From Ruminococcus albus 7 = DSM 20455 (GTDB lineage Bacteria; Bacillota; Clostridia; Oscillospirales; Ruminococcaceae), in the NCBI RefSeq assembly GCF_000179635.2, contig NC_014833.1, forward strand, positions 1,380,001 through 1,412,000: 32,000 bases of DNA. Reading direction: 5' to 3'. The notes below the pieces were generated by a model that worked only from the letters and a program-made list of their open reading frames with translations, did not search any database and was not told the origin of the DNA. Positions 7,675-31,157 of this stretch are shown piece after piece; within the stretch, counting starts at the first letter, position 1; each line of letters begins with the position of its first letter. Position numbers and translations under genes: made by a program.

Positions 7675-7686
7675 CTGCTATACATA

Positions 7687-10916: not shown

Positions 10917-10983
10917 GATTGCGCTCATATAGAAGTTTTATTAAAACAACTATAAACAATAACTTTACAGCAGGCTATGAAAC

Positions 10984-11022
10984 AAAACAGGCAGATACTT
11001 CGATGAGGTATCTGCCTGTTTT
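10984..11022 (-). terminator. Strong bidirectional-looking terminator after the UvrD-like helicase gene
   Basis: 15-bp stem aaaacaggcagatac (10984-10998) / gtatctgcctgtttt (11008-11022). There are A- and T-runs on both sides. It starts 16 nt after the stop at 11038. Confidence 0.8.
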
Positions 11023-11037
11023 CTATTTTAGTTTCAT

Positions 11038-13674: not shown

Positions 13675-14780
13675 GGCAACACCGCACAACTTGCGCAGCA
13701 GCCCAAAAAATGATATAATAAAAGTATGAAAAGCAATCTTCAAACCTCACTCTTCGGCGATGCCTTCCAGAGTGCAAAGACCAACAAAAAACAGTTCCTT
13801 GAGAAAATGGATTCTCTGATCCCTTGGCAAGACTGGGTTTCTATAATATCTCCGATTTATTATGAAGGGAAAGTCGGACAGAAGCCATACCCAATCGAGC
13901 TGATGCTCAGGATCCATATTCTCCAGAATTTCTATGACCTCGCAGATATGGCCGTTATGTATGAGATACTCGACAGCCGCTCTTTCTCTGATTTCTGCGG
14001 CGTATCATCTCCCGATGATGTTCCCAACGGCGATACTATCGGCCGATTCAGACAGCTGCTTATCGACAACAATATCCAAGAGCAGATATTCGCGCAGGTC
14101 ATCAGCATCCTGGATAAGAATCATCTCATCCTGAAGAAAGGTACTATCGTCGATTCGACACTTATTGCCGCGCCCTCCTCCACAAAAAATGCTGACAGGC
14201 AGCGCGACCCCGATGCGCATTCTGTCAAGAAAGGCAATCAATGGTATTTCGGATACAAGGCGCATATCGGTGTCGATAAGGACACCGGCCTTGTTCACCA
14301 CGTCAAGGCGACCGCTGCAAATGTACACGATACGGAAGCCGTCGATGACGTGATCGATGGCGATGAAGATGAAATATACGGAGATTCGGGATATCTGAAT
14401 GTTGAGGAGCATATATCGGAGGAAAAGCAAAAAGAGGGGCGGGAGTATCACATCAACCGCCGGCGCGGTGCAAAGAAGAAACTGGAGCCTAATGATCAGT
14501 TGGTTTTTGAGATAGAAGAGTTTGCGAAGTCCACAGTACGTTCAAAGGTCGAGCACGTTTTCGGAGTTGTGAAGCGACTGTTCCGATTCCGACGAACGCG
14601 GTACCGTGGCTTGCGAAAACAACAAGCCAAATTTAATATGATATTCGCGCTGGCGAATCTTTATCTGGCTGACAAGAAAAACTTGCTGGCTTGATAAAGT
14701 GCGCCCTGCGAACAGGATCTTGGGCAGGCATATCTGTTTGGGGTATGTCTTGCTTTAGAGGTCATTTGTGCGGTGTTGCC
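13675..14780 (+). mobile_element. IS5-family insertion sequence (1106 bp)
   Basis: Terminal inverted repeats are GGCAACACCGCACAA (13675-13689) and TTGTGCGGTGTTGCC (14766-14780). They are flanked by the direct 4-bp duplication CTAA (13671-13674 and 14781-14784), which fits the IS5 YTAR target. There is a single transposase ORF. Confidence 0.92.
13726..14694 (+). CDS. IS5-family DDE transposase
   Basis: 322 aa. It aligns along its length with my memory of E. coli IS5 transposase: PYPIELMLRIHILQNFYDL, GTIVDSTLIAAPSSTKN, RDPDAHSVKKGNQWYFGYKAHIGVD, RSKVEHVFGVVKRLF. Confidence 0.92.
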   Translation: MKSNLQTSLFGDAFQSAKTNKKQFLEKMDSLIPWQDWVSIISPIYYEGKVGQKPYPIELMLRIHILQNFYDLADMAVMYEILDSRSFSDFCGVSSPDDVPNGDTIGRFRQLLIDNNIQEQIFAQVISILDKNHLILKKGTIVDSTLIAAPSSTKNADRQRDPDAHSVKKGNQWYFGYKAHIGVDKDTGLVHHVKATAANVHDTEAVDDVIDGDEDEIYGDSGYLNVEEHISEEKQKEGREYHINRRRGAKKKLEPNDQLVFEIEEFAKSTVRSKVEHVFGVVKRLFRFRRTRYRGLRKQQAKFNMIFALANLYLADKKNLLA

Positions 14781-16074
14781 CTAAGGGATATCCAATTATA
14801 TCAGCGATTACAGGAATTAATATGTTTTCCGCATCACCTTCGACCATTATGATACCCTTTGCAAAAAACAGATTGGCTTTTGTTGAATCAAGAAAACGTT
14901 GAAGAAATAGGTAATCACCTTTTTGCAAACCTGTTTTTCCCTCAGCCAAATCGTACCCACAACCGCTTTTCATTAAGATTAAGTTTTTTAAATTGATTTT
15001 TGATGCCAAAATCGGACTGTGTGTAGATATTATAATTTGGACATCATTTTCGTTATACTCGTTCTGAAGATAGTTAATCAACCTAAGTTGCGCTTGCGGG
15101 TGTAAATGAGCTTCCAATTCTTCGATCAGAGCCAGTTTCAATCCACCGTCAGTGTCATCTTTAAGAAGTAATAGTTCTGCTGCAATGAACAACAGATTTA
15201 ATTCTCCTAATCCCGGGTTAATCTCAGGGGCATTCAATGACAGTGATTCCAGGATAGCTTTGAGCTGAATATCGGATGTTTTCAATTCTGCATTGCTTGC
15301 CTGACCTTGATCATTAAAAGACGCTAAGTTGTCTCGAATCGCTTGAAGAATATGTTTTCCATCGGCATCATCAGTAAAATACTCCTCAATTTTTTTGTTT
15401 GCGTCTTGAAAAATGTCAAGAACTGCGTGTTCCTTCTTATCTTTGAAAACGGGATGATTAAGCAGTATTTGCGAAATTCTGGAACCACGTCCAGAACTCA
15501 TTTCGCGTTCTGCATCACGAAGTGGTTTCAAATAAACTGCTTTCAATAACTCTCTTGCTTTTCCGTCAATAGAAATACCATCATCTATATCACCTACGCG
15601 CAATTCTTGATAAATTCTGTGTCCGTCTTTCCATGCACGATAATGAAGTTGAAGTGTATATTCGACCTTATCTCCATCTTTTTTGAAGTTTAAATATTCG
15701 ATGAAGTTTTTGGCTTCATTCTGCGTGAATTCAGAAAGCGTACAATCGATTTTGAATTCAGAACACGCATTTCCATCGGCTGATCTATAAAAATCTTCAT
15801 CTACTGGCTTGATATATTCATTACTTTGCGTTAGCAAAACTAATTTTAACGCATCAATCACAGCCGTTTTTCCGGAATCATTCTCACCAATCAGCGCATT
15901 TAGCCCCTTATGAAAGGTGATTTGCAGACCAGGTGCTCCATCCACGGATTGGAAACGACGAAAATTATACACCTTTAACTCAGATATAATCATTTTTTCA
16001 CGCTCACTTCCGAAAATTTATAAAGTATAGTAATCCTTCTTATGTTTCAAAATTGTGATTAAAAACCTGTTATT

Positions 16075-16165: not shown

Positions 16166-19100
16166 TCAGAATTCCACGACCTGATCAATCTCCGCCATAA
16201 GCTCCTCGGTGAGCCTGAGAGCTGCAATGATCTTCTTGTAATGCTCGATGTCCTCAGCGGAGAGCGTAGTCTTCTTGCGGTCTTTGAGCCACTTCTGCAA
16301 CGGCTGATAGCCGCCTATGTACTGCTCCCACTGTGCCTGCGGAACATTATCGAAATACTGTGTTTTGCTGATGTACACCCTGCCGTTCTTGTATTCGGGC
16401 TTTACGACTTCGTTAGTGCCGTCACCGACAAAGCTGTAAGCTGCGGTATCGAACTCGGTCTGCATCAGGTGGCATTTTCTCAGCTTGCCGCCAATCTCTA
16501 CCAGTTTCCAGAAGGTTTCCTGATCTGTCGGATACGGTACACGAGGAAAGTCGATTTTCAGGAACTCCTTGTATTTATCACGATATTTCGGAGAGTAAAG
16601 AACCGCATAGATATAGTCGAACAGTTGTAAAGCCATTCCGTCGGAATAAATAATTTCAATAGGTTTCAATAATTGACGAGCTAACTCTTCATTAATATTG
16701 ATTGTACTGCGACCATATTCTGGGTAATATAAATACAAAGGAAGCACAGTACCTCCACCTCTCCGATAAATATTCTGATCACTTATAATATTAGAAACAA
16801 AAACAGTGTCCCAATAATTTAGATTTGCAGCCCCTCCTTGTCTACATATTATTAAACTATAGTTATTCTTATTATTTATATGAGAAAACACTTTTGTATT
16901 CGGACGAGCTAAGACGTTATCATAATATAATATTTTACGAAAATCAAACGGACGGTAAAGGATTTCAGATATATAATCTTTTACATCACATTTTTGTAAA
17001 GACATACGTGCTGATAATGCATTCCATTTATCATTGTCTTTTATTGGTATCCCGAAATAATTGCAGACTGAATTTAACTCATTATCAGGATCAGCAAAAT
17101 ATTTGATTTTTTCAATTAATTCGTTTTCGGTATAATCTACAACAAGAGAATCTCTTTTAGTAAGAACGCCCAATGTGCCTAAAACGAACAAATCTCTAAC
17201 TGATACCCCATCAGAATACTTTTTCTGTATTGGATTATCCATATAGAAGAAAGGATAGTTTGGTGCTACAATAGGAGTCAAGTTCCATTTGATTTCAGCT
17301 AAGGCGGAACTATTTAACATTGTATATTTATCTTGTCTGCTTCCATAATAATCATAGTATCTTATAATTGGTTCTTTATAACTATTAGAATACGATTTCA
17401 CTAAAATTAGAATTGAAACGCCTTGTTGAATATCAAAAACATTCTCATCTTTACTTCCGTCTGGAGCTACCTCCTTTTTTTTGGCATTGCCATGTAAATT
17501 CAAAACAAATAGTTTGTTATATGTTTGCAATAGATTCCATCGCATTCCTCGGAAAGTTGGATTATCGATATATCCGTGCGGACATATATATGCCATTATT
17601 CCGTATCCTGACTTTTCTATAAACAGCTGAGCATATCTTAAAAATTTTACATAATCATCATTAATCCACTTATAGTTTTGTTCTTGTAGTTTTATTCTTC
17701 CGCCAGGCTCTTTCTTGTAATCTTCCATTAAATCCATTATCCATTTGCCTTTATTGGCACTTTCTCCGGAATACGGCGGATTACCAATAATCACATTAAT
17801 TCCGTTATTCTTCTTCGCCTGATTCGCCTCAATGGACTCAAACGCCAGCGGATCATTGTCAAACAGCGTCATCTGAAAATCGTCCTTGCCTGCTTCTTCC
17901 AGCGAATTGGTCAGGAACACATTCAGTCGGTGATCGCCGCCGAAATCATAGCCTGTATCTTTCAGCACCATAGCGAGCTTCATGTGAGCTACGGCATAGG
18001 GAGCCATCATCAGCTCAAAGCCATTCAGACGGGGCAGCAGGTGCTTCGGGACATACTCATTCCATGCCTTTCTGATCTGCTCCTCGCTCTCGCCCTTGTG
18101 CTTGGCTCTGAAATTATCATATATTTGCAGAATGGTCTGACGCAGGAATGTTCCCGTTCCTGTTGCGGGATCGAGTATCTGAACAGCAGGTACTTCCTTT
18201 GTGTCCTCGGTCATGCCCTGACCTCTGATCTTTTCACGCATATACTTCACAGTCTTGGTTTCTTCCGATGCCAGACCGTCCGCAAGCCCGAACTCCGTTT
18301 TCAGAATACTGTCAACTGCTCTGACAATGAAATTGACAACAGGCTGTGGCGTATAGTAAACACCCCTCTGCACCTTCTGTGCCTTGTCATATGCGGTCAG
18401 GAATTCCTCATAGAAATGAATAACAGGGTCTTCACGGCCGCCGCCCGTCTGACGGTTGAAATCGGCAAGTATCAGGTCGGTGTTCGTGTGCGTGAGTATT
18501 TCAACAACATTCGCAACTTCCAGTTCGTCAAAGGTCAGGTGACGCTCACTGCCCTCGCCCAGACATTCCTCCATGAGCCTTTTCAGGAACGGGTTGGTGT
18601 TCGGAATGCAGGCGATCGCTTCTTTCACATTGAAGCTATCCTGCGTCTTGTCCATGCATCTTGCCGAGAATAAGCCGTAAACAACGGTCTGAGCGTACAT
18701 ATCTGCAAACTGCTGCTTTGTCATATCGTGAATAAGGTTATCCTTAAAATCCTTGAACAGCTTATGCACATATCCGTCATGCGTTTCAACAGCATATATG
18801 TCGAGAATACGGTCACGGATAGCCTGAGCCTCAGCCGCCAGCTTGACCGTAAGCGAAGCAGAGTCCCTGATAACCTGATGATATGCCGTTACAAATGCCG
18901 CCGACCACTGATCGTACCATGCCTGTGTGTCAGTAACATCTTTCACCCATGACAGGTGACTAATACGTTCCTCAAAAGTGCGTATCTGTGTGAAGTCCTC
19001 AACCGCAGGCGCACAGGAGATCATTTTTATTTGCGGAAGTCCTGCATCCTTATCCTCAAAATGTGCGATACCGATGGTTCGGTTATTATCCGTCCCCCAG

Positions 19101-19447
19101 AAACAAAGGAACAGAAGGTCTTTCTGCGACCATACAGCGTGTTCAGCGGCATTTCTTCTCTTGGGGATAAGTCCTGACAGTATCTTGCGGAGTGCTGACA
19201 CTTCAAACTTGTTGCTGTCGAACTCTACGCAGAAGATGCCCCATTTCTGCTCATCGCAGAGTGGCTGTAACTGCCGTAATGATGAAATCTTAGCAAATGC
19301 CTCTTCTTTCAGTCCGATGTCCGATGCATCGAAATCGTATGTAATATCGTCGATCTCATCAAAATCATCAAGGTCGATGTTCCAGTTCAGTTCCTCGGTA
19401 AAGTATATGATAAGATCATCTATGCTCTTTATATTTCTGATATCCAT
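16166..19447 (-). CDS. Large gamma-class N6-adenine DNA methyltransferase with Type ISP / MmeI-like C-terminal specificity region
   Basis: 1093 aa. AAGGGG RBS. Motif I ILDPATGTGTFL. Motif IV VIIGNPPYSG. The C-terminal QWEQYIGGYQPLQKWLKDRKKTTLSAEDIEHYKKII matches my memory of the Type ISP C-terminal domain. There is no helicase or obvious nuclease domain in this polypeptide. Confidence 0.85.
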   Translation of the reverse strand: MDIRNIKSIDDLIIYFTEELNWNIDLDDFDEIDDITYDFDASDIGLKEEAFAKISSLRQLQPLCDEQKWGIFCVEFDSNKFEVSALRKILSGLIPKRRNAAEHAVWSQKDLLFLCFWGTDNNRTIGIAHFEDKDAGLPQIKMISCAPAVEDFTQIRTFEERISHLSWVKDVTDTQAWYDQWSAAFVTAYHQVIRDSASLTVKLAAEAQAIRDRILDIYAVETHDGYVHKLFKDFKDNLIHDMTKQQFADMYAQTVVYGLFSARCMDKTQDSFNVKEAIACIPNTNPFLKRLMEECLGEGSERHLTFDELEVANVVEILTHTNTDLILADFNRQTGGGREDPVIHFYEEFLTAYDKAQKVQRGVYYTPQPVVNFIVRAVDSILKTEFGLADGLASEETKTVKYMREKIRGQGMTEDTKEVPAVQILDPATGTGTFLRQTILQIYDNFRAKHKGESEEQIRKAWNEYVPKHLLPRLNGFELMMAPYAVAHMKLAMVLKDTGYDFGGDHRLNVFLTNSLEEAGKDDFQMTLFDNDPLAFESIEANQAKKNNGINVIIGNPPYSGESANKGKWIMDLMEDYKKEPGGRIKLQEQNYKWINDDYVKFLRYAQLFIEKSGYGIMAYICPHGYIDNPTFRGMRWNLLQTYNKLFVLNLHGNAKKKEVAPDGSKDENVFDIQQGVSILILVKSYSNSYKEPIIRYYDYYGSRQDKYTMLNSSALAEIKWNLTPIVAPNYPFFYMDNPIQKKYSDGVSVRDLFVLGTLGVLTKRDSLVVDYTENELIEKIKYFADPDNELNSVCNYFGIPIKDNDKWNALSARMSLQKCDVKDYISEILYRPFDFRKILYYDNVLARPNTKVFSHINNKNNYSLIICRQGGAANLNYWDTVFVSNIISDQNIYRRGGGTVLPLYLYYPEYGRSTININEELARQLLKPIEIIYSDGMALQLFDYIYAVLYSPKYRDKYKEFLKIDFPRVPYPTDQETFWKLVEIGGKLRKCHLMQTEFDTAAYSFVGDGTNEVVKPEYKNGRVYISKTQYFDNVPQAQWEQYIGGYQPLQKWLKDRKKTTLSAEDIEHYKKIIAALRLTEELMAEIDQVVEF

Positions 19448-19457
19448 AATGTACCCC

Positions 19458-22400
19458 TTATATCATCTGAAGCCATGTGACCAACTTGGCTTTTTTGCCC
19501 ATAGGTGCCTGTATCGCTTTCAGATAATTCTTCTTGATGTAGTTTTCTATGACCTTGCGTATCTCGGAGAACTGCCCCTCATTAGCGTTAAAGGCTCTGC
19601 TCTCGTCACGTTCACATTTTATTGCAGTCCATATCTCATGCAGATCTTCTGTGACCTGCTTGCTTTCCGGATCAACAACATACCAACGGTAAATACCATC
19701 GCCGTCCGACCATGAGCCGTCAGCTCTCTTGGTAGGCAGTTCATAGCAGAAGAAGTATCCCTTCCGTGTTGACGCCATTTTACCGCTGTACATCTTTCTT
19801 GGCAGCTCCTTGACCTGTTCAAGATAGTCGGGATTATCTGCTAAGAGCTGCTGATATGCAAGGGCAATTTCTTCCTCTGCGGAAGTACTGCCCTCATAAT
19901 GTGAATTGAATTCTTTCAGTGCTTCGTATTCGTCATCAGGAGTGAGGAGCTTTTCTCCCTCAATGCCGAATGTCTTGGAAATACGGAGCGTTTTCTTTGA
20001 TACGGTCTTATACAGTGACAAAAGATCTTCCAATTCCTTTGGCGGCAGGAAGTTCCAATAATACGCAAAATCACGATCTGCTTTCAGTTCTGGGTGATCT
20101 GCAAGCAGATGGGCTTCGGTATCGGCATCACGGCGTCGGTCTATACGACCTATTCTCTGCATAAGGCGAACAGGGTTCCAGTGAAGCTCATAATTAATAA
20201 GGCACGATGCGTCCTGCAAGTTCAAGCCTTCTGCAAGTACATCTGTTGCGATAAGTATCTTTATCTCGTCCGTTACTTCCGCCGACGAACATCCGTTATA
20301 ATAAGGAGCGAAACGCTGTATCATCTCATGGCGGTCACCGGAAGTCTGCCCGTCGATCTCATAAAGATCGGTAAAACCTGCCTTTTGCAGTTCACGATAG
20401 ATATACTGCGCTGTCGCCTTGTATTCCGTGAAAATGATAACTTTCTTGTTCTGAATGCGTGAATCTTCGTGCAGGATATGCTTTAATTTCCGTATCTTAT
20501 CGTCGTTTTCGGGCTTGAACTCCATCATATCTTCGATGAACTTAGAAAGTGTGTCCATATCCATCATGGTATCAACAAGCAGAGCATTGATATCGAAATC
20601 ATTGACATCAAAGACTTCCTGTGTATTCCACACATAATCGGGCAGGCTGTCCTCAATATCTTCGATAGAGGTCTGATTCAAAGCTGCATATTCCTCGGCG
20701 TACCGTAGAATATCTTCTTGTTCAGCCTGTTTTCTCTCAACACGTCGCTTACTGCTCGCATCAGTATCCTTGTAGTCGTTGAGGAATTTGTTCAGACGGA
20801 TATATATTTTGATACAAGTCTCCTTGAATGCTTCGATAGAACTTTCAAAGCGTTTCAGGAGCAAGATGCGGATAAGATTTACTACCTGCTGTTGACGACC
20901 TGTTACCATTTCGTCCATCTTGGACTTGTCCCCGATGAAATAATCATCGCTGTACGGCGAATAAATGGCAAGGGACAGGATCGTTATCGTTTTTCCGTTC
21001 TTGTCCTTGCGGTCAAAAGACTCCTTGAAGTCCTTTATCAGTCTGCCGTATGACTTTTCGAGGGAGTAGTTCGCAACTGTCGGCGGTTTTCTCTCGGAGA
21101 AAAGGACATTATTACCTTGCTCAGTCAGCAGACTCCGCTTAACGTAGGCACGACTGCGCTGTACAACAAGCTCCGTCACAAGTTTGTCTGCGCGGATAAT
21201 ATCACCGGATATATCAAAAGAATCGCTGATGGCTGTACCCGAAACCTGATCAAGCTGCTTCTCCATTTTTTTGAAATGACCTGAAAGACTATGGATACCC
21301 AACGGAGCAGCGGAGAAATAATCTTCCTGCCTATGAGTGAACAACTCAATAAGATGCTGTAAATCAAGGAAACTGTTATTGATCGGTGTGGCTGTCAGCA
21401 TAAACATCTGCTTTTTACAGCCTGTCTGCATCATATCAAACAGCTTTCTGTATCTGTTGGAGGAACGGTTGCGGAAATGATGTGCTTCATCTATGATAAT
21501 AATTTCCGCCTGCTGTGCGATCTGATTCATTAGATTCTGATTTTTATCAAGCAGCAGGTCGGTATGATTGATGATCTTGAACGGGTAGAAGCCCTCTAAT
21601 ATCTCAGGGATAAGGCGTTTTATAGTTACTTCCCATACGGATACCCTTGCAGATGCAGGAACGATCAGTACGACATTTTTACGCTCCTTCTTTACGAAAC
21701 GCTCTATCAGCATCATGCCGACAAAGGTCTTGCCCAAACCTACACCATCACAAAGAAAAGCACCTGAATAACGCTCTGCTATCTGGATAAGGCTGTTATA
21801 GCCGTCCTTCTGATACTGCGACAAGCCTTTGTATACGACCGATTCGTTTTCTTCCCATTCAGATACTGTTTCCTCATGGCTCTTGAAATACTCATACATT
21901 GAGCGTAGATAAACATCATAAGGACTGAACTCACGGCAGTGCATCTCCATGACCTTTAACACAGCCTCGGTAATATCCGTGCCGTTCTGCCAATGCTCAT
22001 CAAACCACTTCTGAAGCTGTTCAACTTCATCTTTTACCTGAACATTCAGCTCGATATTCTGCGTCAGTCCCGCCTTTGTAAAGTTGCTTGATCCGACCAG
22101 GGCATATCCCGAAGGAACATTCATAGCGGAGATAAACTGATCTCTGTATTCGTCACGGAAATATGTGATATATGCTTTAGCGTGAAATTTATTGCTGTCA
22201 TATACACGGCACTCGATCTTGCCGGACTTCATAGCCTTTATGATAGCCGGAACGCCAATAAGGAATTCATTCTTTTCCTGCTCACGCTCCATACTGTTAC
22301 GGAAACGCTCAATCATAGTCTGTGCTACTTCTTCTATGACATCTTTGGTGCGCTTAGTTACTTCGTTGCCGAGGATAATGCGTATCTTGTCGAGCTTCTG

Positions 22401-22553
22401 CCAATCTTCCCCTAAAGTGAGCAGACCGCCGATCTCGAAGTATCCTGTTGCAATATCCATCTGCTTGGAAATCGAACACCATTCGGAAAGATAATTCTTT
22501 ACAGAAGCCTTTTCGCTGCTGTTGTCAACTATATATAAAGTATCGTGTGCCAT
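19458..22553 (-). CDS. HKD (phospholipase-D family) nuclease domain fused to an SNF2-family SF2 ATPase/translocase
   Basis: I prefer the ATG at 22553 (MAHDTLYIVDNS...), which has an AGGGGGA RBS; the track start is 22613. HKD motif FHAKAYITYF...LVGSSNFTKAGL. SNF2 motifs DGVGLGKTF (I), IIIDEAHHFRN (II), MLTATPINNS (III), LIATDVLAEGLNLQ (V), WNPVRLMQRIGRIDR (VI). The stop is 10 nt before the methyltransferase ATG. Confidence 0.88.
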   Translation of the reverse strand: MAHDTLYIVDNSSEKASVKNYLSEWCSISKQMDIATGYFEIGGLLTLGEDWQKLDKIRIILGNEVTKRTKDVIEEVAQTMIERFRNSMEREQEKNEFLIGVPAIIKAMKSGKIECRVYDSNKFHAKAYITYFRDEYRDQFISAMNVPSGYALVGSSNFTKAGLTQNIELNVQVKDEVEQLQKWFDEHWQNGTDITEAVLKVMEMHCREFSPYDVYLRSMYEYFKSHEETVSEWEENESVVYKGLSQYQKDGYNSLIQIAERYSGAFLCDGVGLGKTFVGMMLIERFVKKERKNVVLIVPASARVSVWEVTIKRLIPEILEGFYPFKIINHTDLLLDKNQNLMNQIAQQAEIIIIDEAHHFRNRSSNRYRKLFDMMQTGCKKQMFMLTATPINNSFLDLQHLIELFTHRQEDYFSAAPLGIHSLSGHFKKMEKQLDQVSGTAISDSFDISGDIIRADKLVTELVVQRSRAYVKRSLLTEQGNNVLFSERKPPTVANYSLEKSYGRLIKDFKESFDRKDKNGKTITILSLAIYSPYSDDYFIGDKSKMDEMVTGRQQQVVNLIRILLLKRFESSIEAFKETCIKIYIRLNKFLNDYKDTDASSKRRVERKQAEQEDILRYAEEYAALNQTSIEDIEDSLPDYVWNTQEVFDVNDFDINALLVDTMMDMDTLSKFIEDMMEFKPENDDKIRKLKHILHEDSRIQNKKVIIFTEYKATAQYIYRELQKAGFTDLYEIDGQTSGDRHEMIQRFAPYYNGCSSAEVTDEIKILIATDVLAEGLNLQDASCLINYELHWNPVRLMQRIGRIDRRRDADTEAHLLADHPELKADRDFAYYWNFLPPKELEDLLSLYKTVSKKTLRISKTFGIEGEKLLTPDDEYEALKEFNSHYEGSTSAEEEIALAYQQLLADNPDYLEQVKELPRKMYSGKMASTRKGYFFCYELPTKRADGSWSDGDGIYRWYVVDPESKQVTEDLHEIWTAIKCERDESRAFNANEGQFSEIRKVIENYIKKNYLKAIQAPMGKKAKLVTWLQMI

Positions 22554-22744
22554 TGCAATCCCCCTGACTATTGCATAATTCATAAAAGGGATCATAATGC
22601 TTTCAGACTGCATACCTGATAAATGCGGTGTTATACTATGTAAAGTATCTGGGGAGAGAGTAGGTTTCTTGAAATAGATACTTTTACGAAATCCGCATAT
22701 TTTAACAGGTATTTGCTTTGAAAGACATAATATCCCATAATGAA

Positions 22745-22773
22745 ATTATACAAGATTTTCCGTAAAATTTCAA
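22745..22773 (-). promoter_or_regulatory. Sigma-A-type promoter for the PLD-SNF2 / methyltransferase operon
   Basis: On the minus strand: TTGAAA (22768-22773), 17-nt spacer, TATAAT (22745-22750). It lies about 190 nt upstream of the ATG at 22553. Confidence 0.55.
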
Positions 22774-22861
22774 GTATCAGGCTGAAAATCGGCGGTTTGT
22801 ATACAAGAGGACTGACTCAGATGTGCAGATTGCTATTCTGAGGGCATTGGAGGGCTACTGA

Positions 22862-23950
22862 ATGGAGAAAACAGGTATAACTATTACAAAGCGTAAAGAT
22901 GGACGGTATGTCGGGAAGTTCATCGCTGAATACGCCGATAACGGCAAAGCGCAGTATCACTATGTCTACGGCAAGACCTATGAAGAAGCCGAAAACAAGG
23001 TGATGATAGGGCGAGAAATTACCACACGCTATCTTTCGGGCAGATATATCAAAGTCGGCAAGGTGTATCGGGAATGGCTGAATGCCGTGGTGAACCGTGT
23101 CAAGGAATCTACGCTTGCCAACTACCGGAACAAGTTTGAAAAGCACATTCTCCTCGAATTCGGAGATATACCCTGTGCCGACCTGACCGCAGGCAGGATA
23201 AACGCATTTATAAACAAAAAGCTCGCAGACGGATTATCTGCAAGCTATGTGAGGGATATATTTACTGTTTTCAAAACGATGCTGAAATATGCACAGGAGG
23301 AATATGGGTTCAGGCTTTCCCTGAAAAATGTCGTTCTTCCTAAAGCCGAAAGAAATCAGGTCGAGAAGATCAGCGATGCAGAGCAGAAAAAGCTCGTTTC
23401 ATATCTGAAAGCCAATATGTCGCTGACTGCTTTCGGTATCCTGCTGTCGCTTTTTATGGGACTGCGTATCGGTGAGCTTTGCGGGCTGAAATGGGAAGAT
23501 GTGGACTTTCGGAACAAGATACTGCATATCCGCAGGACTGTTCAGCGTATCAGTTCTGCCAACGGCAACAGGAAGACAAAGATCGTGATCTCAGCACCGA
23601 AGTCGGCAACATCGTTCAGAGAGATTGCTATCCCCGATATGCTCATGGAATATTTTGAAATGTTCCGTGATGAAGCCGATCATTTCATCTTATCGGGTAC
23701 AGACAAGCCTGTTGAACCCCGCACAATGCAGTACCGCTACAAGAAGATACTGCATACTGCTGATGTGGAAGATCACAACTATCACAAGCTCCGCCACACA
23801 TTTGCGACCAATTCCGCAGAGAAGGGATTCAACGTCAAAGCCCTGTCCGCCGTTCTCGGTCACAGCAGTGTCCCCCTGACACTTAACCGATATATCCACC
23901 CTGACCGCACCTATGAACGCAGGCTGATGAATATGTGTATGCAGTTGTAA
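22862..23950 (+). CDS. Tyrosine site-specific recombinase / integrase
   Basis: 362 aa. GGAGGG RBS 7 nt upstream. Arm-binding-type N-terminus (ITKRKDGRYVGKF). Catalytic-region motifs RIGELCGLKWEDVDF, HKLRHTFAT and LGHSSVPLTLNRYIH. Confidence 0.9.
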   Translation: MEKTGITITKRKDGRYVGKFIAEYADNGKAQYHYVYGKTYEEAENKVMIGREITTRYLSGRYIKVGKVYREWLNAVVNRVKESTLANYRNKFEKHILLEFGDIPCADLTAGRINAFINKKLADGLSASYVRDIFTVFKTMLKYAQEEYGFRLSLKNVVLPKAERNQVEKISDAEQKKLVSYLKANMSLTAFGILLSLFMGLRIGELCGLKWEDVDFRNKILHIRRTVQRISSANGNRKTKIVISAPKSATSFREIAIPDMLMEYFEMFRDEADHFILSGTDKPVEPRTMQYRYKKILHTADVEDHNYHKLRHTFATNSAEKGFNVKALSAVLGHSSVPLTLNRYIHPDRTYERRLMNMCMQL

Positions 23951-24103
23951 ATTGTTGTCAGAACAGTATCTTGACAATTGAATACTGACGGTTTTACGCT
24001 GTTTTTTGAGCTTTATCGTGAATGTATCTATTTCAAGAAATCGGCTTTTCTGTATTATAGAGCAACTGCGCGCAGGTCTTGCGCTGTATGCGCGCTGAAT
24101 ATG

Positions 24104-24137
24104 TGAAAAAAGCTCTCTACGATCATGTGGAGAGCTT
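24104..24137 (-). terminator. Terminator after the mob/SSB-like operon
   Basis: Stem aagctctctac (24110-24120) / gtggagagctt (24127-24137) with 1 mismatch, loop gatcat. U6 tract on the minus strand (plus-strand A-run 24105-24110). Confidence 0.65.
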
Positions 24138-24215
24138 CATAAACGTAATTAAGGCTCCCAGAATACTCTGAGAGCCTTGTTATTTCACATATATAGAAAT
24201 AGATTGCCTGCACTA

Positions 24216-24545
24216 TCAGAAAAGCTGTCCTGAATCAACGTCTACCTTGACTGCAAATCTATTCTGGAAGTGTAGTTCCTCTACGATAATAACTGCGGTA
24301 TTATCAGGAGCCTTCCTGAGCGAGCCTACAAAGGTTATCTGCCCACCTTTTGAGTAGAGAAAACTTACTGATTTAGCGTTGTCATCAAATGCAAGACAGG
24401 TAAACGTGTCTGTCTCAACGGTATCAATGCCATTTCGTTTCGGCTGGTCAACAGCAATACTGAATTTGCAGTAGCTGCAATCCTCCACAGTTACAACGTC
24501 CAAATCGGTGGTGATGCGTCCTGTCATCATGATCTTGTTTAACAT
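24216..24545 (-). CDS. Divergent SSB-like OB-fold protein
   Basis: 109 aa. AAAGGAG RBS. The pattern MLNKIMMTGRITTD..., FSIAVD, TDTFTCLAFDDNAKSV..YSKGGQITFVGSL and VEELHF parallels bacterial SSB N-terminal OB folds. There is no acidic C-terminal tail. Confidence 0.5.
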   Translation of the reverse strand: MLNKIMMTGRITTDLDVVTVEDCSYCKFSIAVDQPKRNGIDTVETDTFTCLAFDDNAKSVSFLYSKGGQITFVGSLRKAPDNTAVIIVEELHFQNRFAVKVDVDSGQLF

Positions 24546-24560
24546 AGTCTACTACTCCTT

Positions 24561-24770
24561 TCAGTCCTCGTCGCTGCACTCGTCCAGCCCGTGCAGGAGC
24601 TGAATATAAACGCATTCAGCTCGTTCATGCTCCTCGCCGTCGGCGGACATCATAAGTTCAAGGAAGTATGCCTTAGCTTGTTCGTAGTCATTCCAGACCT
24701 CACGCTTACCGTTGCATATGGTAGTGACTTTGTTTGATCTCGGCATTGCCAATTCAGGTGTTTTCAACAT
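24561..24770 (-). CDS. Small acidic hypothetical protein
   Basis: The internal ATG at 24770 (MLKTPELAMPRSN...) has a GGAGGTAAC RBS. 69 aa, with the acidic C-terminus DECSDED. Its stop is 15 nt before the SSB-like ATG. Confidence 0.5.
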   Translation of the reverse strand: MLKTPELAMPRSNKVTTICNGKREVWNDYEQAKAYFLELMMSADGEEHERAECVYIQLLHGLDECSDED

Positions 24771-24908
24771 AGCTGTTACCTCCAAAAGTTTTATCGTGAA
24801 TCCATTATAGCGGATAATTATTTCAGAGTCCAGCATATCAGGATAATTGTAATAATCTTTGTGCAGGGCGCAGCAATATTACAATTATCCCCGGTGCAAT
24901 GCGCTGTA

Positions 24909-26309
24909 TTATTCAAGGTCATTTCGCTTGCGCTTTTTCTGCTGGTCACGGCTCCGTTCCTGACGGAGATACTGTTCGATCTCTCTTGCCGCCTCGGATA
25001 ACTCTCTTGCCTTCTGATCGACGGCTTTGTATTCTGCATTCTTCTGTACCCGTTGTGCAGTCAGATCAGCGATCATCTTCTCGAATTTCTCCACAGAAGG
25101 AGTAGTCCCATCGGGATACCATTCCAGTATTTTTTGTGTAAGCATATAATGCTCGGCAAGTGATTCACTATGTTCATTTTTATACTTTTCTTTTTTACGT
25201 CCGTTGAGCGCCATATATTCCTGATGTATCGGTTTCACCTCACGGTATTTGCGGAGCGTTTCTGCACGTTCTTCAAGCGACTTGATCTCACCTGAAATGT
25301 GGTTAAGATCCTGCACAAGTGCTACCCTTTTACTGAAAGCTGAAATGCCGGAAGTCTTGGCTTCATCAACCGTTACGCCGTACTTGGCAAGAATGTTCAG
25401 TGCCTTGCTTGTGATCTTCATATTCTCACGGTCAATGGCATCACGGATAAACTTGTTTTCTTCAGCCTTCGGGGAAATAACTCTAACTTTAGTTTTCGGA
25501 GTATAAAGCATTATGCCATTGTACTGTGCGATACGGGCTTTTATCTGCTCAGTCTCATAATACCAGCCCAGTGTTTTCGCCCTTGTGAATTTTGCACGGG
25601 AATTATTCTCTTTCTGCTCTGCAAGCATATATTTCAGGTCGATTTTATGGTCAGGATTATAATCGACAAGTATGCCGTACTCAGCGCATTTCAGAAGGAA
25701 ATCATCAAAATCTTTGCTGACCTTTACTACCTGATCTATGGCATATTTCAGCTTGGCTTTCCATGACAGACCTTGACGGGACATATCCCATTCCCAATGG
25801 CTCTTGCCTTTGCTCTGTTCGGGGTTCTGAATGATGGACAGATTGTTCTCACTGCATAGCTCGTCCGAGATGCGCCGAAGCTCTGCCCAGGCACGGTCTT
25901 TCTTATTGCCTTGATTATGCTCAGTTTCAAACGTTTTGCCCGTGATCATGTTCGTATTATTTACGATTATATGTGCGTGGATATGCTCATGATCTTCGTG
26001 TACGGCAATGACATATTGATACTGCTCTTGCAACAGTCTATGGCATAGTTCTTCTGCAATCTCCATAGCTTTTTCAGGAGTGACTTCTCCGGGAGAAAAG
26101 CTCTGAATTATGTGCTGTGCTTGGGTGGTGCTTCGTCCTGTTCCAAACCGTTGTCGGACAGCTCGGAATTGTTCGGCTGCTCGGACTGGTTCTGTCTCGC
26201 ACATAAAAGACTGGACAAGTGCATGACCTCTGGTCTTATTCCCGTCCACGATGTATTCAAGGCTGTCGCACACTGAACTCCTGATTGAATGTAGTTTAGT
26301 AACTGCCAA
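24909..26309 (-). CDS. Relaxase / mobilisation nuclease (MobA/VirD2-type domain)
   Basis: 466 aa with a TTG start. N-terminal LEYIVDGNKT (candidate Tyr region). Histidine triad HEDHEHIHAHIIVNN. Long helical C-terminal half. Confidence 0.88.
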   Translation of the reverse strand: MAVTKLHSIRSSVCDSLEYIVDGNKTRGHALVQSFMCETEPVRAAEQFRAVRQRFGTGRSTTQAQHIIQSFSPGEVTPEKAMEIAEELCHRLLQEQYQYVIAVHEDHEHIHAHIIVNNTNMITGKTFETEHNQGNKKDRAWAELRRISDELCSENNLSIIQNPEQSKGKSHWEWDMSRQGLSWKAKLKYAIDQVVKVSKDFDDFLLKCAEYGILVDYNPDHKIDLKYMLAEQKENNSRAKFTRAKTLGWYYETEQIKARIAQYNGIMLYTPKTKVRVISPKAEENKFIRDAIDRENMKITSKALNILAKYGVTVDEAKTSGISAFSKRVALVQDLNHISGEIKSLEERAETLRKYREVKPIHQEYMALNGRKKEKYKNEHSESLAEHYMLTQKILEWYPDGTTPSVEKFEKMIADLTAQRVQKNAEYKAVDQKARELSEAAREIEQYLRQERSRDQQKKRKRNDLE

Positions 26310-26758
26310 ATCTCGTTCACGCTCGCTTTCATTGTTGTAATATCTTCGCTGTAAGCACGTCCTGTTCCGTTCACTCTGCGGGCTACCTGATTCACATTCG
26401 CAGCAAGCCCACGAACTGCACCGACGATGTTCTTCATATCGTCCTGATCTATCATCAGAACATAGTGTGCTTTGGTGCAGTCACGGACATAGCTGGACTT
26501 TCTCATTTTAAGCAAATCAGCCTGCTTGCAGATATGCTCCCACTCCGTATCATTGAAGCGAATATTAAGAGTATGATTACGGCACTGATCCCGTCCGTCG
26601 ATATATTCCTGTTCGTCTGCTGTGAGATTATCGAGAGTGACCTTTTCAAGCACTCCGTCAAGCTCCTCTTTCAAACCATCACGAGTATAGTTCAGAGTAA
26701 GTTCCGCGCTGTCCTTGTGACCGTAATCACGCTTGTAGATTTTCTCTGCCTTTGTCAT
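26108..26758 (-). CDS. MobC-like relaxosome accessory protein with an unusually long C-terminal extension
   Basis: ATG at 26758 with AAAGGAAG RBS. The MobC signature is RKSSYVRDC...LAANVNQVARRVNGTG. The ORF only stops at 26108, about 200 nt inside the relaxase gene in another frame. Confidence 0.75.
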   Translation of the reverse strand: MTKAEKIYKRDYGHKDSAELTLNYTRDGLKEELDGVLEKVTLDNLTADEQEYIDGRDQCRNHTLNIRFNDTEWEHICKQADLLKMRKSSYVRDCTKAHYVLMIDQDDMKNIVGAVRGLAANVNQVARRVNGTGRAYSEDITTMKASVNEIWQLLNYIQSGVQCATALNTSWTGIRPEVMHLSSLLCARQNQSEQPNNSELSDNGLEQDEAPPKHST

Positions 26759-26840
26759 AAAATCTTCCTTTCGTTCCTGACCGCATCAGCGGTCTTTTTT
26801 ATTTAGGGGTCTTAGGGGAACTTTTCCCCTGACAAGCATC

Positions 26841-26880
26841 GTGTTTTGTTGCCCGTTTTCCGAAACGCGGCACAAAACAC
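26841..26880. promoter_or_regulatory. Candidate oriT inverted repeat upstream of mobC
   Basis: Imperfect 18-bp hairpin gtgttttgttgcccgttt-tccg-aaacgcggcacaaaacac. It lies 83-122 nt upstream of the mobC ATG. Neighbouring hairpins are at 26779-26794 and 26813-26829. Confidence 0.4.
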
Positions 26881-27231
26881 CGTGCTTGCAAACTGAGAGT
26901 GCCGATTTCATCGACACTTATATAATCCGCCTGCGGCGGTTGTTTTCTCGCTGTAATAGCGGGAATTCGGAGCGATAGCGACTCTATCTTTTTTTCGTCG
27001 CTCCTGCCGACGATTATATTGTAAAATTCCTCGGCGCAATTATTGCGCAAGTTGTGCGGCAGTTTGATGAAAATGTATCTTTATATATCTACCGAAGAAT
27101 TTATGGTTATGTTAATGTTTCTTCTGAGAATTTTCAGTATGTTTATAGCAGTTCTTCTCATTGCTTAAAATCAACAGCGAATTTATGTTTATATTGTGTA
27201 TAGAACTGTTGCATTTTTAAAATCAACTTAG

Positions 27232-27260
27232 TTGCATTTTCAATGATTATGTGGTATACT
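27232..27260 (+). promoter_or_regulatory. Strong sigma-A-type promoter for the CHAT gene
   Basis: TTGCAT (27232-27237), 17-nt spacer, TGgTATACT (-10 at 27255-27260). Confidence 0.6.
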
Positions 27261-27336
27261 TAATATGTAAGAAAAGGTATGTTCTTACTTATAAACGTTT
27301 CGCATTTTGGAGGAAGATAATATTTCGGAGGACTAT

Positions 27337-28389
27337 ATGGCTCTTATTGATACTTATAGAACAAATGTTGCAAAGAAAAGAGAGCAGTTTTCCAAACTGT
27401 TTTCAGAGAAAGCTAAGGAAAATGAAAAAATAGCTGCAGCAAGAACTAAAATTGAACGTGCCAGCGATGCTATAAGAAAAACAAATAGTTCAGCTACCAT
27501 TAAATCTAAAACCAATGATATAACCAGGGCTGAAAAAGACATCACAACGTCTGAGAAGAAAATTGCCGTTCTTGAAAAACAGATTGCAAAGCTTGAGAAG
27601 GAAATAGCTGATGAACAAAAGAAAGTTGAACGTGAAGAAAAGAAGATTCATGATCAACGGATTAAAGAGGAAGCCGAAATGCAGAAAAAAACACAACACC
27701 AGATTTTAGAGTTAAATAAAACAATTCAGCGTCATGCTGACATACATTCTAATTTGCAGAATCAAATAGATGAATTACAGAAATTACCTAAAACAATTAC
27801 TGTATTATTTTTAGCATCAAATCCCGTAGATACTCCTTCGCTACGGTTAGATGCTGAATGTCGAGCAATACAAGAAATGATTAGGAAGTCTGAATATAGG
27901 GACACAATAAAATTTGAATCAAGGTGGGCTGTACGAACTTCTGATCTTCTACAGGCTATAAATGAAGTTAATCCTGATATTATTCATTTTAGTGGTCATG
28001 GAGATGACGATGGTACGTTAGCATTTGAGAATCCTGACGGAGAATGTAAATTAGTTACAAAAGAAGCTATGGCACAAACTATTATGACACTTTCCGATAA
28101 GGTGCGTCTGATTTTCTTTAATGCTTGCTTTTCAGCTATTCAAGCGGAGAATATCGTAAAGTATGTAGATATAGCCATTGGAATGAACACTTCTATAGGC
28201 GATGAAGCGGCACTCGTATTTGCCTCTCAGTTTTATTCTTCTATAGGATTTGGTAAGAGTATAGAAGTATCTTTTAATCAAGCCAAAGCTGCTTTAATGT
28301 TAGAGGGTATTCCTGAAGAAACAACACCCGAATTGTTTGTTCGAGATGGATTGCAAGCTAACAGTATTATTTTAGTTCAACCAGAATAA
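27337..28389 (+). CDS. Coiled-coil - CHAT (caspase-like Cys protease) domain protein
   Basis: I prefer the ATG at 27337 (GGAGGA RBS 5 nt upstream) over the track TTG at 27307. The first 150 aa or so are Lys/Glu-rich coiled coil. The C-terminal half has the CHAT signature LFLASNP...LRLDAECRAIQ...PDIIHFSGHGDDDG...LIFFNACFS...AIGMNTSIGDEAALVFASQFY. The candidate dyad is His221 (27997-27999) and Cys264 (28126-28128). Confidence 0.8.
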   Translation: MALIDTYRTNVAKKREQFSKLFSEKAKENEKIAAARTKIERASDAIRKTNSSATIKSKTNDITRAEKDITTSEKKIAVLEKQIAKLEKEIADEQKKVEREEKKIHDQRIKEEAEMQKKTQHQILELNKTIQRHADIHSNLQNQIDELQKLPKTITVLFLASNPVDTPSLRLDAECRAIQEMIRKSEYRDTIKFESRWAVRTSDLLQAINEVNPDIIHFSGHGDDDGTLAFENPDGECKLVTKEAMAQTIMTLSDKVRLIFFNACFSAIQAENIVKYVDIAIGMNTSIGDEAALVFASQFYSSIGFGKSIEVSFNQAKAALMLEGIPEETTPELFVRDGLQANSIILVQPE

Positions 28390-28418
28390 CATCATCTATA
28401 AATCAGAAATATTTTCGT

Positions 28419-28465
28419 AAAAGCTGTGAAGCGGGATATACTTCCGCTCCGCAGCTTTTTATTAT
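28419..28465 (+). terminator. Rho-independent terminator after the CHAT gene
   Basis: About 15-bp stem (28419-28434 pairs with 28444-28459; one mismatch, one G-U), followed by a T-run. Confidence 0.7.
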
Positions 28466-28527
28466 TTCCGGACAAATTACACTGGGGAAAATGGAAATTT
28501 CACTAAAAGTTCGTGCGCAATTGCGGC

Positions 28528-28557
28528 TGGACAAACGGCTTCATTGCGCGCTATAAT
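28528..28557 (+). promoter_or_regulatory. Candidate promoter for the DUF4315-like/TnpW/recombinase block
   Basis: TGGACA (28528-28533), 18-nt spacer, TATAAT (28552-28557). The -10 region TGCGCGCTATAAT is repeated exactly at 29336-29348. Confidence 0.4.
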
Positions 28558-28626
28558 TTGATTGTGGAGATACCACGTCAAACACAAACAAAACAAGGAG
28601 AGAATAAAACGGAAGGAGGTGGCGGT

Positions 28627-28938
28627 ATGCTTACCTATGAACAGCAGACAGAAAAGCTCCTGAGCAAGCGTCAGGCGGTGCTTGACCGTATCGAGAGCGA
28701 CAAGGCTGAAATTGAGAAGATCAATGCCAAGCTGAATGCTATCCAGCTCGCTAAGATCAGGGACGCACTTGGCTGTGATGAGCAGGGACTTTTTGAGCTT
28801 ATTACAAAGCACCCTGAACAGCTTGCGAAGCTCAGACAGGATAGCATTGCCGAGAGAGATACAGATACATCTCAGGACGATGATGAGTTCGGTCAGCAGA
28901 TGAGCTTTACTGACAAGAAAAATCCTTATGAGGAATGA
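28627..28938 (+). CDS. Small coiled-coil protein, DUF4315-like (assignment from memory)
   Basis: ATG at 28627 with GGAAGGAGGTGG RBS. 103 aa (MLTYEQQTEKLLSKRQAVLDRIESDKAEIEKINAKL...). This is a typical neighbour of large serine recombinases in Clostridial elements. Confidence 0.55.
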   Translation: MLTYEQQTEKLLSKRQAVLDRIESDKAEIEKINAKLNAIQLAKIRDALGCDEQGLFELITKHPEQLAKLRQDSIAERDTDTSQDDDEFGQQMSFTDKKNPYEE

Positions 28939-28941
28939 CGA

Positions 28942-29004
28942 ATGATTGCTGTGATAATCGGGACGGCAGCAATGCTGTTCCGCACAGCTATCATAAAAGT
29001 ATAA
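28942..29004 (+). CDS. Possible 20-aa hydrophobic micro-ORF
   Basis: MIAVIIGTAAMLFRTAIIKV. GAGGA RBS 7 nt upstream. It starts 3 nt after the preceding stop. It is too short to judge. Confidence 0.25.
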   Translation: MIAVIIGTAAMLFRTAIIKV

Positions 29005-29091
29005 GGCAACAACAAAACGAGGGTAAGATAGAGAAAGCGAAGCCCTCACTCTATATGCGTAGAGATAGACAAGCAAAGGAGAAAGTTCGCT

Positions 29092-29301
29092 ATGAATAAT
29101 AAAGATAATATTGCCGTAGAAAATACGGCAATTGAAACTGTGTCCGAGTACAAGATCGGGCATACCCTTTACACGGTGACTACCGTGTTCAACCCTGCTT
29201 CAAAGGCAAGCCTTTCGGATATTCTGAAACGGCTCATAATCCGTGAGTGTGAGGATTTCCTCGGTGAATCCGGACAAGAACCCGAGAAGCAGGCTGTGTA
29301 A
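29092..29301 (+). CDS. TnpW-like small transposon-encoded protein (assignment from memory)
   Basis: 69 aa. AAAGGAG RBS. ...YKIGHTLYTVTTVFNPASKASLSDILKRLIIRE... resembles the small ORFs annotated TnpW next to TnpX-type recombinases. Confidence 0.5.
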   Translation: MNNKDNIAVENTAIETVSEYKIGHTLYTVTTVFNPASKASLSDILKRLIIRECEDFLGESGQEPEKQAV

Positions 29302-29319
29302 CTTTGGAATATCGGCGCA

Positions 29320-29348
29320 TTGTATTTATTTTCGGTGCGCGCTATAAT
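29320..29348 (+). promoter_or_regulatory. Candidate internal promoter for the serine recombinase gene
   Basis: TTGTAT (29320-29325), 17-nt spacer, TATAAT (29343-29348). It shares the 13-mer TGCGCGCTATAAT with 28545-28557. Confidence 0.35.
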
Positions 29349-29353
29349 GATAA

Positions 29354-31040
<1,687 letters not shown>

Positions 31041-31157
31041 TCATCTTAAAATCTTAAATACTTCTTTATCGGCGCTCCTCTAAAGCTCTCCTCCTTGGCA
31101 TTCTATCTTCAGCACAGCTAAATCACCCACTTATCAAAACTTTTACACCCCAGTCTC

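Follow-up and report, generated by a model that had tools for sequence, protein, structure and literature searches.

We analysed a 32,000-nucleotide window of Ruminococcus albus 7 = DSM 20455 (NC_014833.1, positions 1,380,001 to 1,412,000; all coordinates below are those of the window). A mobilisable island in this window carries a gene for a coiled-coil–CHAT protein, termed here CC-CHAT. The gene is intact and lies on the plus strand at 27337–28389; it starts with ATG, ends with TAA at 28387–28389 and encodes 350 residues. A TTG codon at 27307, used by automatic gene callers in P0001 and P0002, is an alternative upstream start that adds 10 residues (360 aa). We take the ATG at 27337 as the true start, because homologues in many phyla begin at the equivalent of MALIDTYR and carry GGAGG a few bases upstream. 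In the window, the ribosome-binding site was read as GGAGGA at 27327–27332 (plus strand), 4 nt 5' of the ATG, and comparison of homologous loci showed that GGAGG was kept at the same distance.

An earlier note, made from the sequence of this stretch, had described the gene as a self-contained expression unit. Its ribosome-binding site, 350-aa reading frame and good terminator were all confirmed. Folding placed the intrinsic terminator at 28419–28465 (plus strand), as a hairpin (28419–28459) followed by a U-tract. The free energy was -23.7 kcal/mol (z = -4.55), and 0 of 200 shuffles folded equally well. The near-consensus extended -10 promoter claimed in the note stood in part. A promoter-like site was read at 27232–27260 (plus strand), with TTGCAT at 27232–27237, 17-nt spacing and a TG-extended TGG-TATACT at 27252–27260, but its -35 hexamer matches the consensus at only 3 of 6 positions. 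The consensus scan did not list the site for this reason, and it returned 8 promoter-like sites in the AT-rich region around the gene against 7.0 expected, which is not above chance. A promoter at 27232–27260 is therefore no more than plausible by its letters. The next gene downstream has a strong promoter-like site of its own (TGGACA, 18 nt, TATAAT at 28528–28557), which fits a monocistronic CC-CHAT unit. The promoter-like site, ribosome-binding site and terminator together fit a predicted, independently expressed unit. The G + C content of the coding sequence is 35.0%, against 42.0% for the surrounding element. As the note had stated, the gene sits between the mobilisation and recombinase modules, that is, between MobC/relaxase (24909–26758, minus strand) and the TnpW-like/large serine recombinase pair (29092–31021, plus strand). 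Its flanking reading frames are the MobC gene on one side and a 103-aa protein of the recombinase module on the other.

CHAT domain and N-terminal module

Residues 151–350 (27787–28386, plus strand) form a compact CHAT/caspase-fold protease domain. The Pfam CHAT model PF12770 matched aa 167–321 with 40.4 bits, against a cut-off of 24 (E = 3.1e-10). Pfam yielded no other domain in the protein, only coiled-coil noise and no TPR, in agreement with the claim that no sensor domain of a known kind is fused to it. The closest solved structure by sequence was the SAVED-CHAT filament 8tl0 (E = 2.5e-13). The AlphaFold2 model of the monomer, built from 71 homologues, reached a predicted local distance difference test (pLDDT) score of 89.4. 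It showed a helix at 3–48, a tight turn, a 96-residue helix at 52–147 and an alpha/beta domain at 154–335. Foldseek with this model against the PDB again returned 8tl0 at the top (E = 2e-15, root mean square deviation ~3.1 Å across ~205 columns), followed by MALT1 and then by caspases 4, 9, 6 and 7.

The His/Cys dyad suggested in the note was borne out. His221 (HFSG-H-G, codon 27997–27999, plus strand) and Cys264 (FFNA-C-FS, codon 28126–28128, plus strand) are invariant in 71 sequences. The HMMER alignment set them opposite residues 355 and 402 of the 8tl0 chain, which, with an offset of 20, are H375 and C422 of SAVED-CHAT. The H375/C422 double mutant of SAVED-CHAT is inactive. By these matches, CC-CHAT is a member of the CHAT/caspase superfamily (PF12770, clan CD) and a predicted cysteine protease with an intact dyad. 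The same compact CHAT domain was also found joined to TIR and NACHT proteins on cyanobacterial plasmids.

The first 150 residues (27337–27786, plus strand) make up a helical hairpin or coiled-coil module, comprising the two long helices of the model. The note had called this part a K/E-rich, heptad-like coiled coil of about 150 aa. The helical module of that length was found, but it is a conserved homologous domain and not a run of generic heptads. The PADLOC profile PDC-S66 (282 positions) matched collinearly, with its positions 3–139 against aa 4–140 of CC-CHAT (E = 2.1e-13 and 3.8e-13). Generic coiled-coil models (SMC, JetC, LmuB-type) scored 5e-3 or weaker against the isolated N-terminal half. 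The first ~100 residues are conserved, including the turn motif R-T-K-S-x-S-T-I-K-S-K. As judged by profile comparison, the module is a true conserved domain, homologous to the N-terminus of PDC-S66.

We searched a profile of the N-terminal 150 residues against 1.84 billion representatives and obtained 583 matches at E<=1e-3. These were CC-CHAT proteins, fragments and two further architectures. A tblastn search of plasmids with the same 150 residues had returned two Shewanella CC-CHAT genes only; it was too insensitive, and a profile search was needed. The first of the further architectures is formed by coiled-coil–TIR (CC-TIR) proteins of 270–297 aa, which have the module at residues 1–150, followed by a TIR domain (Pfam TIR_2). 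They matched PDC-S66 over its full length (E = 1e-90 to 1e-106), and their TIR domains lie near the solved TIR structures of TcpB, PdTIR and AbTir (E = 1e-47 to 1e-51). The other is rare (P0213, P0236, P0271) and joins the module, which matched the N-terminal half of PDC-S66, to a domain of ~170 aa. For P0213/P0236, this domain had no Pfam or PDB match. A single weak link to a PF00211 cyclase protein (E = 5.6e-4) and class III cyclase-like motifs seen by eye lead us to call it, tentatively, cyclase-like.

The three architectures align without a gap across the first ~100 residues, and share L21, E28, K31, K38, S51, K58 and R64 in addition to the turn motif. Since the same module is fused to a CHAT, a TIR or a cyclase-like domain, the effector has been swapped on a common scaffold. 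CC-CHAT and PDC-S66 are alike in size, single-gene habit and module order, and their N-terminal ~150 aa are collinear from residue 1 with the same loop motif. They differ at the C-terminus, where PDC-S66 has a TIR domain, an NADase by homology, and CC-CHAT has the protease. With the N-terminal module present and the TIR domain replaced by CHAT, domain content makes CC-CHAT a sibling architecture of PDC-S66 and not a member of it. AbTir, with a coiled coil at 27–118 and a TIR domain at 134–267, resembles the CC-TIR proteins in this described layout, not by sequence comparison of the coiled coils. The homology link between the CC-CHAT module and the CC-TIR proteins (PDC-S66, with TIR domains of the AbTir/TcpB/PdTIR group) is a new point and was unexpected. 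In the literature searched, we found no paper describing the CC-CHAT family or the shared module, and none joining a CHAT domain with an AbTir/TcpS-type coiled coil, an absence that is not proof; PDC-S66 is described there as uncharacterised, and no characterisation of it was found.

Distribution and neighbourhoods of CC-CHAT

A search of 5.8 billion clusters gave 1983 matches to CC-CHAT at E<=1e-3. Among the clusters listed, nearly all were ~350 aa long, with 100% query coverage and 53–79% identity. Scanning one genome per species, we found relatives in at least 535 genomes, at 44–99% identity and near full length (from query residues 1–9 to 327–350); between phyla, full-length members show 44–79% identity. 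They are spread over Bacillota, Bacteroidota, Pseudomonadota, Spirochaetota, Planctomycetota, Chloroflexota, Acidobacteriota, Gemmatimonadota and Desulfobacterota, and 88 plasmid records also contain a relative. The phage DNA collection gave one weak match in 50,697 records, and the viral structure library returned generic caspase-like matches only; therefore, the gene is not phage-borne. An exact look-up of the CC-CHAT protein found only contigs shorter than 2 kb, and one of the relaxase protein found nothing.

Two plasmid settings were observed in passing. On 14 Staphylococcus plasmids, a 141-aa 'CHAT domain-containing protein' is a C-terminal remnant, 51% identical over aa 179–350; on the S. 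aureus plasmid pHUV05-03 (L081), it lies at 5097–5522 among resistance genes, IS257 and the Fst toxin gene. A 43-kb Shewanella putrefaciens 'plasmid' (L082) has a full-length CC-CHAT at 6001–7032, beside an HNH endonuclease and a DUF2326 protein and just 5' of a helix-turn-helix regulator and a divergent Cro/CI-family regulator. The rest of this replicon consists mostly of small hypothetical genes. It is possibly phage-derived, and its CC-CHAT may be a lysogeny-associated defence gene.

For gene context, we took 80 CC-CHAT loci and clustered their 747 neighbours all-against-all, naming the clusters by reading representative sequences. No partner gene was conserved across these loci, and the size, orientation and spacing of the flanking genes varied. 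The note's statement that the gene has no partner thus holds for the window, where none is adjacent, and for the family. An integrase, a recombinase, an IS3 transposase or a type I restriction–modification (R-M) gene was present within 6 kb at 32 of the 80 loci. The commonest neighbours at that distance were tyrosine integrases (14 + 4 loci), serine recombinases (4) and IS3 transposases (4), along with the type I subunits HsdM (8), HsdR (8) and HsdS (7). At nine loci from unrelated phyla, CC-CHAT stood beside or inside a type I R-M operon in the same orientation. It lay between hsdS and hsdR in L055, L067, L071 and L079, with other reading frames intervening in the last three, and its start abutted or overlapped the hsdS stop in L067 and L079. 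By Pfam, the neighbours were integrases, helix-turn-helix regulators, methylases and some housekeeping genes. In a 30-locus sample, PADLOC matched BrxL and PglZ (BREX), SIR2-HerA, type III R-M, MADS genes and several PDC candidates.

Relatives 73–75% identical to the window protein occurred in three settings: a plasmid-like mobilisable element with NikA, relaxase and ParAB; a conjugative element with VirB4 and a CHAP hydrolase; and a chromosomal island with WYL, PBECR4 and PLD-helicase genes. The recurrence of homologues on mobilisable or conjugative elements and in defence islands, for which the note had asked, was thus found. The context of CC-CHAT is the signature of a stand-alone defence gene.

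Function of CC-CHAT

On balance, CC-CHAT is probably a single-protein abortive-infection effector directed against phages or other invaders and activated by trigger-induced assembly. The fold and dyad, the lack of a sensor of known type, the lack of a conserved partner and the mobile and defence context make a conflict or abortive-infection role the best reading, as the note had proposed. One support that the note had given it is gone. The note took CC-CHAT for the only accessory gene of its element, and the island also holds Gabija, a type IIG-like methyltransferase with a PLD-SNF2 helicase, and a tyrosine-recombinase cassette. The argument that a sole cargo gene must be under selection falls with it, although the company of two other defence modules on a mobile island favours the same conclusion.

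The active sites of TIR NADases form on assembly, and induced proximity is what switches caspases on. One scaffold that serves several proximity-activated enzymes is most simply an assembly switch. As the note had suggested, the coiled coil may be a sensor, an oligomeriser or an autoinhibitory substrate. In the mechanism that we propose, the N-terminal module would keep the CHAT enzyme inactive in the uninfected cell. The cue would be a phage protein or the loss of a guarded host function. On this cue, the module would drive higher-order assembly and juxtapose the CHAT domains, a step that we borrow from the SAVED-CHAT filament model. Active CC-CHAT would then cleave host proteins, phage proteins or both, and the infected cell would stop before phage release. 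The conserved turn at residues 47–58 does not depend on the type of effector, and it is the best candidate for a putative trigger-binding or assembly surface. A wider proposal, which we regard as possible rather than probable, is that the ~100-aa hairpin with the R-T-K-S-x-S-T-I-K-S-K loop is a portable trigger-sensing and assembly module, used on at least three proximity-activated death or signalling enzymes (CHAT, TIR NADase and class III cyclase-like).

Several points weigh against the abortive-infection reading. For the family as a whole, it draws on sequence, one structure model and context. The model is a monomer with a predicted template modelling (pTM) score of 0.59, and a monomer cannot show assembly. 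Many CC-CHAT loci have ordinary housekeeping neighbours, and the defence-island enrichment is semi-quantitative because it has no matched background. The TIR siblings of the TcpB, TcpS and TirS class have historically been described as virulence factors, so the module may have a role other than defence. Finally, a PADLOC scan of the CHAT half at E<=10 matched only the 'chat' (3.1e-9) and SAVED_CHAT (2.2e-3) models, with no match to BovA.

This last result bears on Borvo (BovA; Millman et al. 2022), likewise a single gene with a CHAT protease effector, for which the sensing of a phage gene product was reported to lead to cell death. CC-CHAT is much shorter and differs from BovA in architecture, and the homology seen between them is that of the CHAT superfamily. 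We rejected membership in Borvo on the missing BovA match; the BovA models are presumably part of PADLOC v2.0.0, because other systems of the same study (MkoA) are.

The closest CHAT domain, by sequence and by fold and with the dyad aligned, is that of SAVED-CHAT, the type III-B CRISPR/CBASS-derived effector of Haliangium ochraceum. SAVED-CHAT becomes active once filaments bring its CHAT domains together, and it cleaves PCaspase. CC-CHAT has the N-terminal hairpin in place of the SAVED domain, and no linked PCaspase, sigma-factor or CRISPR genes. The PADLOC SAVED_CHAT profile matched it only through the CHAT part (positions 308–451 of 498). Judged from its domain content, CC-CHAT would not sense cyclic oligoadenylates; the window contains no cyclase or Cas10 signal generator, and the 80 loci have no conserved neighbour that could supply one. 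The type III-E Craspase TPR-CHAT (Csx29) and the gasdermin-associated proteases are likewise caspase-fold CHAT proteases that work as switchable immune effectors. Craspase requires gRAMP plus Csx30, and the gasdermin-type proteases an adjacent gasdermin, whereas CC-CHAT has no conserved neighbour. We found no TPR match in the protein, no CRISPR genes in the window and no gasdermin gene adjoining CC-CHAT.

The type I R-M operons offer a different comparison. Between hsdS and hsdR, such operons can encode the anticodon nuclease PrrC, a suicide effector that serves as a backup. In several genomes CC-CHAT occupies the same place in the same orientation, although the PrrC nuclease is unrelated to the CC-CHAT protease and the copy in the window is not next to a type I system. 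By analogy, we conjecture that CC-CHAT might guard an R-M enzyme, with a PrrC-like, guard-type trigger.

The place of the gene in the island could also suggest a protease associated with transfer or acting against defence. Placed first next to the presumed oriT, CC-CHAT would be made early in the recipient and would cleave host defences or exclude competing elements. It directly adjoins the MobC/relaxase promoter region and is transcribed away from these genes, its close relatives are also found on conjugative or mobilisable elements, and the island bears an SSB-like gene, of a kind common in plasmid leading regions. We consider this role unlikely. The position relative to the relaxase is not conserved (in L087 CC-CHAT lies 3' of ParA/ParB, and in L093 it lies 5' of MobC, several genes away), and transfer genes are lacking around many homologues, which are found in chromosomal islands and type I R-M operons. 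No oriT was located on the island, and a sibling with a TIR NADase effector suits a suicide effector, not an anti-defence protein. An activator encoded elsewhere would likewise be an improbable solution. CC-CHAT would then be a signal-dependent executioner under an unlinked sensor, much as PCaspase is under SAVED-CHAT. It has no recognisable ligand-binding sensor domain and its closest structural relatives work in cascades; nevertheless, its spread across phyla as a single gene, with no neighbour conserved in the 80 loci, is hard to square with a specific partner, and the conserved N-terminal module is a plausible built-in regulator.

Carriage on plasmids and integrative elements, and the truncated copy that adjoins the Fst toxin gene on Staphylococcus plasmids, could be taken to indicate an addiction or stabilisation toxin, which penalises the loss of the mobile element. 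No conserved antitoxin-like small reading frame or RNA was found beside the gene, the upstream gaps range from overlap to >1 kb, and CC-CHAT is often chromosomal and embedded in R-M operons, so we think this very unlikely. Equally slight is the chance of a non-conflict function, be it as a regulatory or developmental protease or as a host-interaction factor, as was once proposed for Tcp-type TIR proteins. CHAT domains are also part of some regulators, the anti-sigma factor DdvA (Foldseek match 8rot) being one, and the virulence descriptions of TcpB, TcpS and TirS point the same way. This is countered by the patchy, horizontally transferred distribution, which includes free-living, rumen, marine and soil bacteria, by the neighbourhood of defence and mobile-element genes, and by the reading of the protein, which revealed no signal peptide or membrane segment.

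A part for caspase-like proteases as executioners in bacterial immunity is becoming apparent, and those characterised need partners, namely CRISPR complexes, second messengers or gasdermins. If CC-CHAT is the single-protein effector that we favour, a 350-aa protein with its own regulator would be the simplest such system and a compact model for the induced-proximity activation of caspase-fold enzymes. The shared module ties it to the coiled-coil–TIR proteins, whose natural function has long been argued over and becomes testable through a common trigger. Were the module indeed portable, bacterial immunity would have in CC-CHAT a minimal 'initiator caspase' made of one protein, and the 'virulence' TIR proteins of the AbTir/TcpS/TirS type would be anti-phage sensors of the same family.

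The mobile island and other features of the window

The island that carries CC-CHAT spans ~20.2 kb (10917–31085), with AAAG at both junctions (10913–10916 and 31082–31085). Its right end was defined by Ruminococcus sp. YE71, which shares 21697–31085 at 95.8% identity on a contig starting there. The homology ends exactly at 31085, beyond which the window has a speD-like gene (by reading its translation) and YE71 has gyrA, gyrB and recF. At the left end, contigs L102, L103 and L105 share 10913–13676 at 99.9%, and past the junction they have GH26, Rce1 and dockerin genes in place of the window flank. Joining 10916 to 31086 gives GACCAAAAG|CTCTCCTCCTTGGCA and restores the right arm of a chromosomal palindrome, the left arm of which lies at 10197–10306. 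The element-free relative L095 has the same short right-arm arrangement beside the same ABC-F gene and looks like an empty site. Shared junctions with different flanks and the rebuilt palindrome arm therefore indicate a single insertion at 10917–31085. The predicted circular junction of the island reads ...CTCCTCTAAAGGATTGCGCTC..., and the predicted chromosomal site restored after excision reads ...GACCAAAAGCTCTCCTCC... An exact pattern scan of metagenome contigs for the empty site gave no match. A 21-nt inverted repeat (10197–10217 and 31080–31100) was considered as attL/attR, with a left end at 10212, and was rejected since the element-free L095 has the same sequence; it is the outer arm of the chromosomal palindrome, split by the element. 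In YE71 and in L102, L103 and L105, the island copies sit at different chromosomal sites. Identity to the other copies is mosaic, at 99–100% over 24.1–28.6 kb versus 81–95% in the flanking parts; therefore, the copies have recombined.

The left part of the island contains Gabija (11038–15993, minus strand), identified by PADLOC (GajA 2.7e-169, GajB 6.9e-171), with gajB at 11038–12945 and gajA at 12961–13743 and 14755–15993. An insertion sequence at 13672–14783, which encodes a DDE_Tnp_1/DUF772 transposase and has 18-nt terminal inverted repeats, divides gajA into pieces of 412 and 260 aa. The gene is intact (640 aa) in L102, L103 and L105, and Gabija is probably dead in the copy studied here. 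Next comes a restriction-like pair on the minus strand (16166–22613; Pfam and PADLOC), which consists of a type IIG/ISP-like methyltransferase (16166–19447; REase_MTase_IIG 7e-229) and a PLD-SNF2 helicase (19458–22613; HKD+Snf2 1.1e-58). Within the methyltransferase gene, 16330–17418 could not be aligned with the copies in L102, L103 and L105, of which the product is 1104 aa long against 1093 aa in the window; both sides of the segment align at 93–98% identity. This segment looks like a swapped target-recognition region of different specificity.

The tyrosine-recombinase cassette (22665–24040; gene at 22862–23950) is flanked by 25-nt inverted repeats that are 92% complementary. It is absent from the otherwise homologous L102, where the flanks are joined through one copy of the repeat. 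The cassette may be either a recombinase-only mobile or invertible unit or a phase-variation switch beside the methyltransferase/helicase operon.

The domain scan of the mobilisation module (24909–26758, minus strand) identified a MobA/VirD2 relaxase (24909–26309) and a NikA/MobC protein. The MobC/NikA reading frame (26108–26758) overlaps that of the relaxase (start at 26309) by ~200 nt, possibly owing to a misassigned start or stop or to a frameshift. The recombination module at the right end (29092–31021, plus strand) comprises a TnpW-like protein and a large serine recombinase (29360–31021) with Resolvase, Recombinase, Zn_ribbon and DUF4368 domains. No type IV secretion or conjugation genes were found among the main reading frames scanned in 10917–31085, so the island is mobilisable at best. 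With its end recombinase, relaxase, defined junctions and lack of conjugation genes, the island is by gene content an integrative mobilisable element, for which excision and transfer are predicted. Such an island would move three defence systems jointly among rumen Ruminococcus genomes. The Tn4451/Tn5397-like elements of Clostridia likewise combine a large serine recombinase (DUF4368) at one end, a TnpW-like protein and a MobA-type relaxase with no conjugation machinery. The island differs from them in its ~20-kb length, in its phage-defence cargo instead of antibiotic resistance and in the additional tyrosine-recombinase cassette. Its junction core is AAAG, whereas Tn4451 uses a GA dinucleotide.

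Other features lie outside the island. A non-coding stretch of ~790 nt (10125–10916) contains nested long inverted repeats, of which the outer arms measure 33 nt and are 100% complementary. It is ~84% conserved beside the same ABC-F gene in the metagenome contig L095, and the island is inserted in its right arm. Rfam gave no family match anywhere in the window. A Ser/Thr kinase of 781 aa with an SH3 domain (2346–4691), near an SPFH/Band-7 protein (515–1852), matched the PADLOC mad6 (2.9e-47) and PD-T4-6 kinase models; it may be an ordinary or a defence-type kinase. Window positions 1039–14029 are 99.99% identical to contig JHYT01000066.1 of GCA_000621285.1. The sole difference is a missing base near 6234, which splits the gene for a 471-aa sodium:neurotransmitter symporter into the reading frames 5514–6212 and 6215–6928, and which reflects either a fresh frameshift or a difference in sequencing or assembly.

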